Of a stretch of DNA of 14,939 nt, positions 233 to 14,939 are shown in pieces. The DNA comes from a phage, in sequence record PX306536.1; one strand, given 5' to 3'. The notes beneath the pieces are model-generated. The model was not told the DNA's origin. It saw only the letters and a program-made list of their open reading frames with translations, and made no database searches. The number at the start of each line of letters is the position of its first letter. Position 1 is the first letter of the stretch. A program made the translations under genes and the position numbers.

Positions 233-1012
233 ATGGCGAAGAAAAAACCAGTAGAAAAAAATGGGCTTGTTTATAAAGAGTTTCAAAAGCAAGTTTCAAA
301 TTTGAAGAAAGCCGGACTAATCCCTAAAACCCTTGACGTGCGAAAAGTCAAGCCAACAAAACACTATAAAGGATTGGTAAGCAAATATAAAGACGTTGCA
401 ACAGGGGGCGCTAAACTTGCAGCAATTCCTAACCCCGCCGTTATTGAAACGCTTGAAGCGCGGGGCGAATCCATCATTAAGAAAGGCGGCAAGGCATATC
501 TGAAAGCCCGCCAGCAAATAAACCAGCGCGGACAAATTGTAAACCCCTTTACGGTTCGCGTAACCAAACGCGGCGAAGTGGTGCGCCGCTACCGTAAGAC
601 TACCCCGGAAGGCAAGCCCGTTTATATCACGCAACGGGAATTGCCTATTAAGTTTGAGAATATGGAACAGTGGCTTACTGAATTAAAGGCCGCTGGTTTT
701 CAATTGCAACCGGGCGAACAAATCTATTTCACTTTTAACGGTAACTATTCCCGCCGTACCTATACGTCATTTGATGAAGCGTTCAATAAATTCATGACGT
801 ATGACATTATTATTGATGCGGTGGCCGGAAAATTAAAAGTAGAAGATGAAGCCGATTTAGTTAAGTCGGTAGGCTTTCAGCGTATCAGCGGCCCCGAAGC
901 CAAGGCGTATAACCGTAACCGTATTGTATTGCCTGAAATGCAATTTAGCCAAGCGGCTAAAAAGAAATACAAGCGCCGTCAAAAACGCGGCTATGGCAGC
1001 AAGGGGGTTTAA
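233..1012 (+). CDS. VIII: Genome terminal protein P8 (protein primer for DNA replication), 259 aa
   Basis: First ORF inside the left ITR, 259 aa, basic and Lys-rich; Tyr at residue 190 (codon 800-802, context FMTYD) matches the priming tyrosine recalled for PRD1 P8. RBS AAGG upstream. Confidence 0.9.
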   Translation: MAKKKPVEKNGLVYKEFQKQVSNLKKAGLIPKTLDVRKVKPTKHYKGLVSKYKDVATGGAKLAAIPNPAVIETLEARGESIIKKGGKAYLKARQQINQRGQIVNPFTVRVTKRGEVVRRYRKTTPEGKPVYITQRELPIKFENMEQWLTELKAAGFQLQPGEQIYFTFNGNYSRRTYTSFDEAFNKFMTYDIIIDAVAGKLKVEDEADLVKSVGFQRISGPEAKAYNRNRIVLPEMQFSQAAKKKYKRRQKRGYGSKGV

Positions 1013-1015
1013 TAT

Positions 1016-2677
1016 ATGCCGCGCCGTTCCCGTAAAAAGGTTGAATATAAAATTGCAGCCTTTGACTTTGAAACTGACCCTTTCAAGCATGACCGTATCC
1101 CTAAACCGTTTTCATGGGGTTTTTATAATGGTGAAATTTATAAAGACTATTGGGGCGATGATTGCATAGAACAGTTTATTTACTGGCTGGATACCATAGA
1201 AGAACCCCACGTCATATACGCGCATAACGGCGGCAAGTTTGATTTTCTTTTTCTCATGAAATACTTTCGCGGGAAATTGAAAATAGTTAATGGGCGTATT
1301 TTGGAAGTCGAACACGGTATCCATAAATTCCGCGATAGTTATGCAATCCTACCGGTGCCACTTGCTGCCAGCGATGAAAAGATAGAAATTGATTATGGCA
1401 AGATGGAAAGGGAAACCCGCGAACAGCACAAGGCGGAAATTTTAGAATACCTTAAAGGCGATTGTGTCACCTTGCATAAAATGGTTAGTTTGTTTATTGC
1501 TGAATTTGGAATGCGCCTAACCATAGGCGGTACGGCAATGAATGAATTAAAACAGTTCCACCCTTATGACCCGGTGCGCAAAGGCTTTGATGAAGCTATG
1601 CGCCCCTTTTATTTTGGTGGAAGGTGCCAAGCATTCGAGAAAGGAATAATAGAAGATGATATTAAAGTTTATGACGTTAATAGCATGTACCCCCATGCTA
1701 TGCGAAATTTCCGCCACCCTTTCAGCGATGAATTTTATGAAGCCGATGAAGTAACGGAAGAAACTTATTTTATTGAATGGGAAGGCGAGAATAACGGCGC
1801 GGTGCCAGTAAGGACTAAAACAGGATTAGACTTTAATCAGCGTAGCGGCATTTTCCATACGTCAATCCATGAATGGCAGGCGGGCATTGATACCGGCACG
1901 ATTAAACCTAATCGGATTATAAGGACAATCAATTTTACTGAAACAACCACTTTCGGCGCATTCATTGACCATTTCTTTAGCAAGCGTGACGCGGCCAAAA
2001 AGGCGGGCGATTTATTCCACAATATTTTTTACAAACTTATTTTAAATAGCAGTTATGGGAAGTTTGCGCAAAACCCCGAAAATTATAAAGAGTGGTGCAT
2101 AACGGAAGGCGGCATTTATTTAGAAGGCTATGACGGCGAAGGGTGCGAAGTACAGGAACATTTAGATTATATTTTATGGGGTAGGCCCGCTGAAATGTTT
2201 AATTATTTTAACGTGGCAGTGGCGGCAAGTATTACAGGCGCGGCCCGTTCCGTTTTATTGCGGGCATTGGCGCAAGCGGAAAGGCCGCTTTATTGTGACA
2301 CTGATTCTATTATTTGCCGTGATTTAAAAAATGTCCCGCTTGACGCATACCAGCTAGGCGCGTGGGATTTGGAAGCAACCGGCGATAAAATAGCGATTGC
2401 CGGTAAAAAATTATATGCGCTTTACGCTGGTGATAATTGCGTTAAAATTGCAAGTAAGGGGGCTAGTCTGGTTCCGCGTGATATTGGGTTTTTAATGCCC
2501 CCGGATATGGAACCGAAAGCCGCCAAAAAGGTAGCGCAACAAAAGGCTAAAAATATTGGTGGCGAGAAAATTTTAAAGGTGGCTAATGGCGGCGTGTATG
2601 ATTTTGTAAATGATGCCCCGTCATTTAAGCTAAATGGCAACGTGCAATTTATCAAGCGCACAATCAAAGGAACATAA
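1016..2677 (+). CDS. I: Protein-primed family B DNA polymerase P1, 553 aa
   Basis: Exo I FDFETD, Exo II YAHNGGKFDFLF, Exo III YLKGDCV; polymerase motif A DVNSMYPHAM, motif B KLILNSSYGKFAQ, motif C YCDTDS (2291-2308). RBS AAGGGGG at 1001-1007. Confidence 0.95.
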   Translation: MPRRSRKKVEYKIAAFDFETDPFKHDRIPKPFSWGFYNGEIYKDYWGDDCIEQFIYWLDTIEEPHVIYAHNGGKFDFLFLMKYFRGKLKIVNGRILEVEHGIHKFRDSYAILPVPLAASDEKIEIDYGKMERETREQHKAEILEYLKGDCVTLHKMVSLFIAEFGMRLTIGGTAMNELKQFHPYDPVRKGFDEAMRPFYFGGRCQAFEKGIIEDDIKVYDVNSMYPHAMRNFRHPFSDEFYEADEVTEETYFIEWEGENNGAVPVRTKTGLDFNQRSGIFHTSIHEWQAGIDTGTIKPNRIIRTINFTETTTFGAFIDHFFSKRDAAKKAGDLFHNIFYKLILNSSYGKFAQNPENYKEWCITEGGIYLEGYDGEGCEVQEHLDYILWGRPAEMFNYFNVAVAASITGAARSVLLRALAQAERPLYCDTDSIICRDLKNVPLDAYQLGAWDLEATGDKIAIAGKKLYALYAGDNCVKIASKGASLVPRDIGFLMPPDMEPKAAKKVAQQKAKNIGGEKILKVANGGVYDFVNDAPSFKLNGNVQFIKRTIKGT

Positions 2678-6588: not shown

Positions 6589-6784
6589 AGAAAAATTGAT
6601 TGCTGAAATTGATAGCGCGGGCCTTTCGGCTGAAATGCTGGAATCCATGCCAAGCCCTGAAATGTTCCCGCTTATTATTGTCAATCTGCAAGGGCGTATT
6701 GCCGAACTGGAAGCGCGGGAAACTGAAATGCTGGCCCGCGTTGATACGCTGATTGCCCGCCTTGCGCATTTGGGGGTAGCCTAA
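6578..6784 (+). CDS. XXXIII: Assembly protein P33, 68 aa
   Basis: ATG at 6578 preceded by GAAGGTGA; the track's 6563 start is a TTG. Overlaps the XVII 3' end by 11 nt; coiled-coil-like sequence. Confidence 0.7.
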   Translation: MTNEEKLIAEIDSAGLSAEMLESMPSPEMFPLIIVNLQGRIAELEARETEMLARVDTLIARLAHLGVA

Positions 6785-7284
6785 TGGATACCGAAGAAAT
6801 TAAAGAGGAAATGCAGGAAGCCGCCGAAGCCGCCATAGAAAACGCGGTTGAAACTGCCGAACTGGAAACAGCCGCTATTAAAGCGGAAGGGGCGGCGGCA
6901 GCGGCGGAACAATCGGCAGAACAAGCGGCGGTAATGGCCGCGACCCTTGCCGCAAGTGTTGAAGCAAACGCCGCGCAACAAATCGCGGAACATTCGGAAC
7001 AGGTACAAACACAAGAGGAAAAAATATCATGGCTGGAAAATCAAGTAATGGCGATGGCGTCAAATTTGCAGATGATGCAGGAAGCGGTAACAGCATTGAC
7101 GGTATCGCAATCATTGACCCCGGAACCGTCACCAGCGCCAGCGGTGGAAGTGGAAGCGATGCCGGAAGCGGTGACAGTGGAAATACTCCCCGAAAGCGCG
7201 GGCGACCAGCCGGAAGCGGAACCGGCGCAAAGCGTGGGCGACCAGCCGGAAACAGCGCCGCGAAAAAGGTTCCGGGCAATCTAG
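6784..7284 (+). CDS. VI: Minor capsid / DNA packaging protein P6, 166 aa, acidic and Ala/Glu-rich
   Basis: 166-aa ORF, start overlaps the XXXIII stop (TAATG); strongly acidic low-complexity N-terminal half. Confidence 0.8.
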   Translation: MDTEEIKEEMQEAAEAAIENAVETAELETAAIKAEGAAAAAEQSAEQAAVMAATLAASVEANAAQQIAEHSEQVQTQEEKISWLENQVMAMASNLQMMQEAVTALTVSQSLTPEPSPAPAVEVEAMPEAVTVEILPESAGDQPEAEPAQSVGDQPETAPRKRFRAI

Positions 7285-7640
7285 GCGTTGAAAAAATCCT
7301 TTTCAGTTTGCACTTGATGGCGTCAAGCGCGTTGAAGGTTGAAGAACTGGCGCTTGATGAAAAGGAAGCCGAAGCCCTTGCCGGGGCAGTGCAGGAAGTG
7401 GCGAGCCATTACGATATTACCCCTGACCCTAAAATCATGGCATGGGCGGGATTGTTTGGCGTTTGCGCTTCTATTTATGGCCCCCGCGTTGCAGCTTATA
7501 AAATGCGGGCGGCGGCTGAAAAGCGCGATAAAAAGGAAGCGGCTAAACCGATGGCCCAAAAGGTACAGGAAGCCAAGCCAACGGAACATGACCCGGCAGC
7601 GCCTTACATTGAACAATTGCCAGTAAGTAACCTGCTATGA
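7029..7640 (+). CDS. X: Assembly (scaffolding-like) protein P10, 203 aa, overprinted on the 3' third of gene VI
   Basis: 203-aa ORF in a different frame from VI, overlapping it by 256 nt; contains two KRGRPAG AT-hook-like motifs. Confidence 0.8.
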   Translation: MAGKSSNGDGVKFADDAGSGNSIDGIAIIDPGTVTSASGGSGSDAGSGDSGNTPRKRGRPAGSGTGAKRGRPAGNSAAKKVPGNLGVEKILFSLHLMASSALKVEELALDEKEAEALAGAVQEVASHYDITPDPKIMAWAGLFGVCASIYGPRVAAYKMRAAAEKRDKKEAAKPMAQKVQEAKPTEHDPAAPYIEQLPVSNLL

Positions 7641-8320
7641 CAATACGAATGCCAAACGATAGACAACGTATTCTAGTGCTAGGCAAAACCGGCACCGGGA
7701 AAACTTGCGCCGCCGTTTGGCATTTATCCCAAAAGGATTTTAAGCGCAAGGCGTGGATTGTCCTAAACCATAAGGGCGATGATTTAATTGATTCCATTGA
7801 AGGGGCTAACCATGTAGATTTAAATTTTCGACCTAAAAAACCGGGGCTTTATATTTACCATCCTATCCCTGATGTTGATGATGCGGAAGTAACGCAATTG
7901 CTTTGGGATATTCACGCGATGGGCGATATTGGCGTTTATGTTGATGAAGGGTACATGATTCCAAACCGTGACCCGGCATTTCAGGCGCTACTTACTCAAG
8001 GCCGGAGTAAGAAAATCCCGATGATTATTTTAAGCCAGCGGCCCGTATGGCTTACCCGCTTTGCCATTTCGGAATCGGATTTTTTCCAGATATTCCAATT
8101 AGGCGACCAGCGCGATAGGCAAACCGTGCAAGGTTTTGTTCCGGTGGATTTGGAAAAATTAATGCAAGCGCCTGTAAATACAGTGCCAGCATTAAAAAAA
8201 TTCCATTCAATTTATTATGACGTGGGCGCTAATAATTGCGTTATAATGACACCGGTTCCTACCGCTGACGCCGTTTTGGCCCGGTTCGACCTTGGCAAGA
8301 AAAGAAAGCAAACCCTGTAA
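7637..8320 (+). CDS. IX: DNA packaging ATPase P9, 227 aa
   Basis: Walker A GKTGTGKT (7682-7705) and Walker B-like IGVYVDEG; ATGA overlap with the gene X stop. Confidence 0.92.
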   Translation: MTIRMPNDRQRILVLGKTGTGKTCAAVWHLSQKDFKRKAWIVLNHKGDDLIDSIEGANHVDLNFRPKKPGLYIYHPIPDVDDAEVTQLLWDIHAMGDIGVYVDEGYMIPNRDPAFQALLTQGRSKKIPMIILSQRPVWLTRFAISESDFFQIFQLGDQRDRQTVQGFVPVDLEKLMQAPVNTVPALKKFHSIYYDVGANNCVIMTPVPTADAVLARFDLGKKRKQTL

Positions 8321-14829: not shown

Positions 14830-14939
14830 CTATCGCTTTTCCGTTTGTGATAGTTCGGGCCTATCGGATGCAGGGGGTATTGACAGACGGAAATAAAAAT
14901 GTTAGGGGCGCGGGTAGGTGGGGAGGGGCACGTATCCCC
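14830..14939. repeat. Right inverted terminal repeat (110 bp), genome terminus ending CCCC
   Basis: Exact reverse complement of positions 1-110. Confidence 0.95.

Follow-up and report, generated by a model that had tools for sequence, protein, structure and literature searches.

A conserved AT-hook-like motif in the tectivirus assembly protein P10, tandemly duplicated in PRD1-type phages within the overlap of genes VI and X

When one stretch of DNA is read in two frames and a short element within it is repeated in tandem, which of the two proteins does the element serve, and what might it do there? This question is raised by the end of gene VI and the start of gene X in the window analyzed here, i.e., the whole stretch of 14,939 nt, which constitutes the entire genome of a PRD1-type alphatectivirus. 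The internal-membrane viruses of the PRD1-adenovirus lineage have PRD1 as their reference model, and across positions 6700-7700 the window shares 96-98% identity with PRD1 and with dozens of plasmid-dependent tectiviruses of recent isolation, with no record being identical to it. The coordinates of the open reading frames of P6 and P10 are those of genes VI and X in the PRD1 record AY848689 (Table 1). P10 is 99.5% identical to PRD1 P10 over 203 aa and matches PHROG 14814 (E 2e-137), where its function is listed as unknown, with neither Pfam nor PHROGs supplying a functional name; P6 matches PHROG 15059, a minor head protein (E 8e-102). In the literature, P6 is treated as a protein of the unique vertex, and P10 as a non-structural scaffold that associates with the membrane and to which no DNA role is assigned; it is enriched in the patch pinching off the cytoplasmic membrane and is displaced by capsid proteins. 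Gene X overlaps the downstream packaging ATPase gene by 4 nt; the order of gene X and then ATPase is also found in Gluconobacter phage GC1 (Gammatectivirus) and in those relatives whose downstream ATPase gene was read, and the P10/Gp-h gene precedes the packaging ATPase across Tectiliviricetes (PMC9502842).

Table 1. Features of genes VI, X and IX and of the overlap, with positions in the window
Feature	Position	Strand	Details
Gene VI, P6, minor capsid / packaging efficiency factor	6784..7284	+	ORF of 166 aa
Gene X, P10, non-structural assembly/scaffolding protein	7029..7640	+	ORF of 203 aa
Dual-coding overlap: last 85 P6 codons and N-terminal disordered P10 arm	7029..7284	+	256 nt
Repeat unit 1, holding hook 1	7193..7228	+	P10 residues 54-63, PRKRGRPAGS (nt 7188-7217)
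Repeat unit 2, holding hook 2	7229..7264	+	P10 residues 66-75, GAKRGRPAGN (nt 7224-7253)
P6 C-terminal basic tail PRKRFRAI and stop codon	7258..7284	+	P6 frame better conserved here
P10 folded C-terminal domain, starting where P6 stops	7278..7544	+	AlphaFold2 pLDDT 79-95
Gene IX, packaging ATPase P9	7637..8320	+	ORF; PRD1 annotation; directly downstream of gene X

An earlier note on this DNA had claimed that P6 and P10 share 256 nt in different frames, and that a near-perfect direct repeat within this overlap (7195-7215 and 7231-7251) reflects a 36-nt duplication giving two AT-hook-like R-G-R-P motifs in P10. Both reading frames and the overlap are borne out, with the P10 frame lying two bases ahead of the P6 phase. 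The direct repeat matches at 20 of 21 bases, the translations given earlier were right (..TPRKRGRPAGSGTGAKRGRPAGNSAAKK.. in P10 and ..SAGDQPEAEPAQSVGDQPETAPRKRFRAI in P6), and the R-G-R-P core is indeed present twice in P10, at residues 57-60 and 69-72. Over the full 36-nt units 27 of 36 bases match, and repeat-finding returned a pair of 32 nt at 84% with a spacing of 36; the repeat is absent from the list of Tandem Repeats Finder because there are only two copies. In 300 first-order Markov simulations of the genome, not one contained a 21-mer repeated within 100 nt with at most one mismatch. A 36-nt duplication as the source of the two motifs is supported as it had been proposed.

Copy number was examined with a 91-nt query spanning both units, aligned to 75 alphatectivirus records. 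This query gave a single-piece match of 88-91 nt in all 75, so that the copy number is fixed at two in the genus, and both K-R-G-R-P-A-G copies are present in every record. It is hook 1 that lines up with the one hook present in distant relatives. The second unit of several sister phages is nearer to unit 1 than is that of the window (..GGAAGCGGGGCCG.. vs ..GGAAGCGGAACCG..), so that a whole 36-nt unit was duplicated and later diverged at its 3′ end. The duplication took place in the common ancestor of the PRD1-type alphatectiviruses, and gave the disordered N-terminal arm of P10 a second copy of a 12-residue unit, K-R-G-R-P-A-G-S-G-x-x-x. Two other direct repeats lie in the overlap: one of 20 nt (7074-7093 and 7158-7177, 90%, spacing 84), reading DAGSGNS and DAGSGDS in P10, and one of 16 nt (7139-7155 and 7166-7182, 88%, spacing 27), reading SGGSGS and SGDSGN. 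The disordered arm of P10 seems to have grown through repeated small duplications.

Homologues of P10 were sought well outside the genus. With full-length P10 as the query, a word-indexed search returned nine metagenomic homologues of 35-55% identity, all of them with R-x-R-G-R in an otherwise unalignable, Gly/Ser/Asp-rich N-terminus, and among 11 homologues of 31-89% identity R-x-R-G-R was present in 11, with R55, R57, G58 and R59 invariant. Since a full-length search is open to bias by the motif, we used the C-terminal domain alone (window 7284-7637) as a motif-blind query against 1.84 billion representative proteins, and the motif frequencies given below rest on this search. It returned 2164 protein clusters at E <= 1e-3, and the 114 sequences analyzed come from the top 150 of these clusters and are long enough to include the arm. 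In the arms of these 114 full-length top matches RG[RK] occurs in 97, with 14.5 expected from shuffled arms, and [KR][KRS]RG[RK][PK] occurs in 64, with 0.04 expected. Residues R57, G58, R59 and G62 are at least 90% conserved in the 114-sequence alignment, a level like that of H95 and Y150 in the folded domain. The hook takes two chief forms among the homologues, KRGRPAGS and (K/R)RGRKPGS, and lies about 20-28 residues upstream of the three-helix C-terminal domain; a generic basic cluster stands in place of RGR in 17 of 115 homologues (about 15%). Two GRP cores are found in 6 of 115, hook 2 being absent as such from most distant homologues. The earlier note's proposal to compare repeat copy number across tectivirus genomes hence gave a divided answer, in that two copies are constant in the 75 alphatectivirus records and distant relatives mostly have one. 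As most distant relatives have a single hook, the sequence comparison indicates that the duplication is specific to the PRD1 lineage and that the motif, which is of AT-hook type and reads [K/R][K/R]-R-G-R-[P/K]-[A/P]-G-S, is ancestral.

The reach of the motif is shown by phage GC1, where the P10 homologue (171 aa, 40% identity, E 6e-20) has one hook, GGRKRGRPAGGG. Unlike P10, the reported P10 homologue of PM2, Gp-h, has an acidic N-terminus without a hook; it carries FAPR, which may be compared with YGPR in P10. Gp11 of Rhodococcus phage Toil contains only a KKRR cluster and has no detectable similarity to P10, to which it is not linked as a homologue (hhalign probability 0.4%). With no hook in PM2 or Toil, the hook belongs to a PRD1/GC1-like branch and not to the whole family. 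Within the very large family of P10 homologues, most members keep the hook peptide with free choice of codons, and a motif kept so far beyond PRD1 therefore matters for P10. In Thermus phage phiKo (MH673671.2), positions 650-1495 hold an unannotated ORF of 281 aa upstream of the packaging ATPase and overlapping phiKo_16 and phiKo_15, which reads ..ARRGRGGSGSG.. and ..LIVAPRVQATLQMRAAKKE.., resembling the P10 hook and the YGPR helix. The link to P10 is weak (hhalign probability 53%), and this ORF could either be homologous to P10 or be a spurious reading frame in a GC-rich genome. Our scan of genome contigs yielded one alphatectivirus fragment, inside a MAG, as its sole find: a 3.2-kb contig (JBFXIU010000387.1) of a Porticoccaceae MAG, with a P10 95% identical to that of the window, which is probably a binning artefact.

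An AlphaFold2 model of P10, built from the 114-sequence alignment, places both hooks in a flexible arm. Except for a short hairpin, residues 1-83 are predicted to be disordered (pLDDT 47-71, with 56-59 at the hooks), and are followed by helices at 84-102, 111-128 and 134-172. The folded domain contains the hydrophobic stretch W139-Y150 and the YGPR motif, with H95 and Y150 invariant and Y150, G151, P152 and R153 conserved, i.e., the (Y/F)(G/A)PR motif and hydrophobic helix of the PRD1 P10/Gp-h family are present. Foldseek with the P10 model found no match in the PDB below E = 2.7, and phmmer with the 40-residue hook region found none among PDB sequences. The hairpin corresponds to a second conserved element of the arm, G-I-x-I-I-D-P (7092-7121, P10 residues 22-31), modelled as a small beta hairpin, of which P31 is at least 90% conserved in the 114 homologues.

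The overlap itself was followed through divergent loci found with a 6-sequence alignment. One of the search patterns was the hook itself, so that these loci are biased for the motif, and we used them only for the analyses of overlap and codons. In all 17 distinct divergent loci a P6-like frame, unchanged in its relative phase, stays open for 190-304 nt beyond the P10 start, and the third frame is shut within 8-92 nt; the overlap is 244 nt in GC1. In the 15 loci that keep the invariant His (the equivalent of H95), P6 stops 10-14 codons ahead of this His, where helix 1 begins, and the hook lies 20-28 codons before the P6 stop. Because it is shared by relatives at about 30% P10 identity, the overlap is old, and since the arm is disordered up to helix 1 it is confined to the disordered arm of P10. 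All P6 homologues have a basic tail whose final residue is hydrophobic (PRKRFRAI, KKKQHRFL, AKKRLRRL, QKRRRLI and RQRRARFL, among others). Nothing else in the overlapped part of P6 is clearly conserved, and through this tail the packaging factor may contact DNA or the portal. Judging by the PRD1 annotation and the literature, both P6 and P10 are probably made, and the presence in each frame of a conserved segment of its own gives this indirect support. At 7027-7032 the P10 start lies on a P6 Trp codon (TCA|TGG, read as A-T-G-G), and x-W stands in P6 at the P10 start in most relatives, including GC1 with its GTG start; as the bases are shared, the P6 Trp and the Met-Ala or Met-Asp start of P10 constrain each other.

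The earlier note had also asked which frame is under purifying selection. We aligned 15 alphatectivirus genomes over the available diversity (80-100% P10 identity) and scored each variable site of the overlap in both frames. Upstream of the hooks (7029-7185), 8 sites are silent in P10 and change P6, 7 are silent in P6 and change P10, and 8 change both. Across the hook segment (7186-7251) the corresponding counts are 10, 0 and 1, and in the tail segment (7252-7284) they are 1, 6 and 6, with the hook and tail segments differing significantly (Fisher test, p = 5.7e-4). Variant density in the overlap upstream of the tail is 0.15-0.17 per nt vs 0.28-0.32 in the single-coding flanks, i.e., about half, as is expected because of dual coding. 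This analysis demonstrated that P6 is a passenger over the hook segment, its sequence changing freely, and that the roles swap a few codons downstream, where the basic tail of P6 is the constrained reading; constraint thus alternates along the overlap, with the hook conserved in P10 and the tail in P6. The P10 frame is under purifying selection over the hooks both in the alphatectiviruses and in very distant P10 homologues, and such selection on the motif strongly argues, from sequence comparison, that it is functional in P10. Like overprinted same-strand gene pairs of small phages and viruses, one stretch of DNA here gives two proteins in two frames, and the overlapped parts of P6 and P10 are disordered, of low complexity and slower to accumulate substitutions. 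Unlike simple overprinting, the overlap of P6 and P10 is old, its constraint alternates, and neither reading is merely novel and unconstrained.

What kind of motif, then, is kept in P10? An AT-hook comprises 10-15 residues around a GRP core, usually RGRP, flanked by basic residues and prolines, with the RGR entering the minor groove of AT-rich DNA, and isolated AT-hooks bind weakly (PMC11354804, PMC5028900). The N-terminal flanks in P10 fit this description, with T-P-R-K before hook 1 and A-K before hook 2, and the arm is predicted by AlphaFold2 to be a disordered segment, as AT-hooks are. Many relatives have an RGRKP variant in place of RGRP. C-terminal to the core the flanks are A-G-S-G and A-G-N-S, the next K or R being 7-8 residues on, whereas strong hooks are typically basic there; the C-terminal flank of some relatives reads RGRPRK, RGRPKGS or RGRKPGS. 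Against the Pfam AT_hook model (PF02178) P10 scores 12.5 bits (E 0.15), which is below the curated cutoff of 17.4, and at E <= 1 the model matches 14 of 114 homologues, the best E being 0.025. No other Pfam family is matched by as many members of the alignment as AT_hook, although its matches are weak. Because of the score below the cutoff and the non-basic C-terminal flank, we class the motif as AT-hook-like and not as a proven member of the family.

Individual sequences bring out the resemblance. The P10 sequence TPRKRGRPAGSG resembles the HMG-I consensus TPKRPRGRPKK and hook 1 of MeCP2, GRGRGRPKGSG, and the KRRGRKPGS of relatives resembles hook 2 of MeCP2, KKRGRKP, which is a weaker hook. 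As in HMGA and MeCP2, P10 has an R-G-R-P core preceded by P, K or R in a disordered segment, with G-S after the core in P10; there is more than one copy of the hook in the PRD1-type phages; and an acidic, Gly/Ser/Asp-rich region near the hooks may be compared with the acidic tail of HMGA. Unlike HMGA and MeCP2, P10 is a non-structural assembly protein of a bacteriophage and not a chromatin protein. Prokaryotic readers of the minor groove of the RGR type include the bacterial nucleoid proteins H-NS and Lsr2 and the HMGA-like domain of Myxococcus CarD, with the RGR motif of H-NS and Lsr2 located in a loop of a folded DNA-binding domain. The P10 motif differs from these in that it lies in a free, disordered arm joined to a putative membrane- or scaffold-binding helical domain. 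Our search of the literature identified no report of DNA binding by P10, and a full-text search for PRD1, P10 or tectivirus together with AT-hook gave no paper linking an AT-hook to tectivirus P10, the AT-hook/tectivirus matches concerning other proteins. The VI/X overlap is already part of the standard PRD1 annotation, and we consider the AT-hook-like motif in tectivirus P10, as recognized from its sequence, to be new.

The reading that we favor, to which we give about an even chance, is that the hook of P10 binds nucleic acid in the minor groove and links the membrane-associated scaffold to DNA, with the second hook adding avidity. The hook would be a nucleic-acid-binding element of the AT-hook kind, its RGR core lying in the minor groove, and through it P10 would contact DNA at the assembly site, whether phage DNA or the nucleoid. 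The second copy would raise avidity as multiple hooks do in HMGA proteins. In the adjacent frame, the same DNA encodes the flexible C-terminal linker of P6. The phenotype reported for P10 mutants speaks against a DNA hook, since it is a failure of particle assembly and not a DNA defect. If P10 does bind AT-rich DNA, candidate sites would be the 10-bp pure A/T tracts in the inverted terminal repeats (40-49 and 14891-14900), about 40 bp from each end; as there are 178 A/T runs of at least 7 bases in the genome, mostly in its left third, no specificity can be claimed for these tracts.

As the main alternative, we considered that the basic motif might bind acidic phospholipids in the membrane patch specific to the phage, or else an acidic surface on a partner, such as capsid protein, packaging ATPase or chaperonin, with the likeness to AT-hooks being convergent. 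This is a real possibility, which we nevertheless judge unlikely. It fits the published account of P10, which associates with the membrane, is concentrated in the patch and gives way to capsid proteins, and it also fits the generic K/R cluster in place of RGR in 15% of homologues, the Pfam AT_hook score under the cutoff and the non-basic C-terminal flank. The AT-hook regions of HMGA proteins are, moreover, also sites of protein interaction. Simple binding to lipid through charge would leave the non-basic residues free to vary, but conservation reaches at least 90% at G58 and G62, P or K nearly always occupies position 60, S63 is frequent, and the pattern as a whole fits the AT-hook consensus and not an amphipathic or polybasic lipid-binding stretch.

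A narrower doubt concerns the second hook, which could be a redundant product of slippage in a low-complexity, repeat-prone region, one hook being enough and the copy having survived only through the slow change that dual coding imposes and the youth of the alphatectiviruses. The single hook of most distant homologues, including GC1, the other short repeats in the overlap described above and the fact that the alphatectiviruses sampled are at least 80% identical here are all consistent with such an origin, which we regard as doubtful. The substitutions in copy 2, at 7232, 7235 and 7247, are all silent in P10, and the residues after its core vary (GNS, GSG, GS and GSR) whereas K-R-G-R-P-A-G does not; the copy number is, in addition, invariant in 75 isolates from different continents and hosts.

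That the conserved element acts at the level of nucleotide or RNA, or through the P6 frame, with RGRP in P10 as a by-product, we regard as extremely improbable, for although the nucleotides of the hooks are nearly invariant within the alphatectiviruses, over 16 loci the codons vary (CGC/CGT/CGA/AGA/AGG, GGN, CCN, GCN and AGY/TCN) under a constant peptide, and the P6 reading drifts from locus to locus (SAGDQPEA, SVVVQPVV, SAAAPPVP, NVEERPEA and NEGGQQDQ). A role as RNA was rejected, as 7170-7290 folds no more stably than shuffled sequence (z = +1.33), and the RNA of the hook region matches no family in Rfam.

Returning to the DNA-binding reading, a more specific version of it makes P10 a two-handed adaptor, whose helical domain would hold the membrane patch or procapsid and whose AT-hook arm would hold the phage genome. 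We think this version improbable, and mention it because the P10/Gp-h gene always accompanies the packaging ATPase, so that P10 might recruit the genome to the assembling particle. Why the gene of a membrane assembly factor travels with the packaging ATPase in Tectiliviricetes is a question that has been raised (PMC10589892), and the adaptor, if true, would explain it, in that membrane and capsid assembly would be coupled to the recruitment of DNA for the ATPase of the neighboring gene; the role would then be comparable to that of the DNA-recognition subunit of tailed-phage terminases.

These findings place a known type of motif in an unexpected protein, and provide a well-resolved case of alternating constraint in an old pair of overlapping genes. 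A short motif that is conserved like the core of a folded domain is a precise target for mutation, and amber mutants of gene X can be complemented from plasmids, which leaves the overlapping P6 frame undisturbed. Should the hook bind DNA, particle assembly and recruitment of the genome would be physically linked in these viruses; should it bind lipid or a partner protein, it would define the scaffold contact of P10.

Other readings of the region were also considered. With the P10 frame open from 6963, the A-run at 7019-7025 might allow a programmed -1 frameshift out of P6 into P10. This seems unlikely: read in the P6 frame, the run does not form a canonical X-XXY-YYZ heptamer, and it resembles the spacer of the P10 ribosome-binding site. 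On the minus strand, an ORF of 133 aa (6878..7279) reads PAGRPRF twice as a mirror of the hooks, and is almost certainly no gene but a by-product of base composition; one of the metagenomic contigs (L003) has a similar antisense reading, PAGRPRLRG.

Because the overlap is long, gene callers and GenBank annotation miss, in relatives, either the homologue of P6 or the first half of P10, a blind spot of annotation that GC1 exemplifies. In the GenBank record of GC1 (MG159787.1, 714-1504), the P10 homologue is given as a 75-aa stub, GC1_00008, which covers the last 75 codons, the real ORF being 989..1504 and 171 aa long. In three metagenomic contigs, L002 (3277-3747), L003 (4612-5061) and L004 (5815-6189), the P6 homologue is omitted by the JGI and Logan gene calls, leaving a seeming gap of 200 nt.
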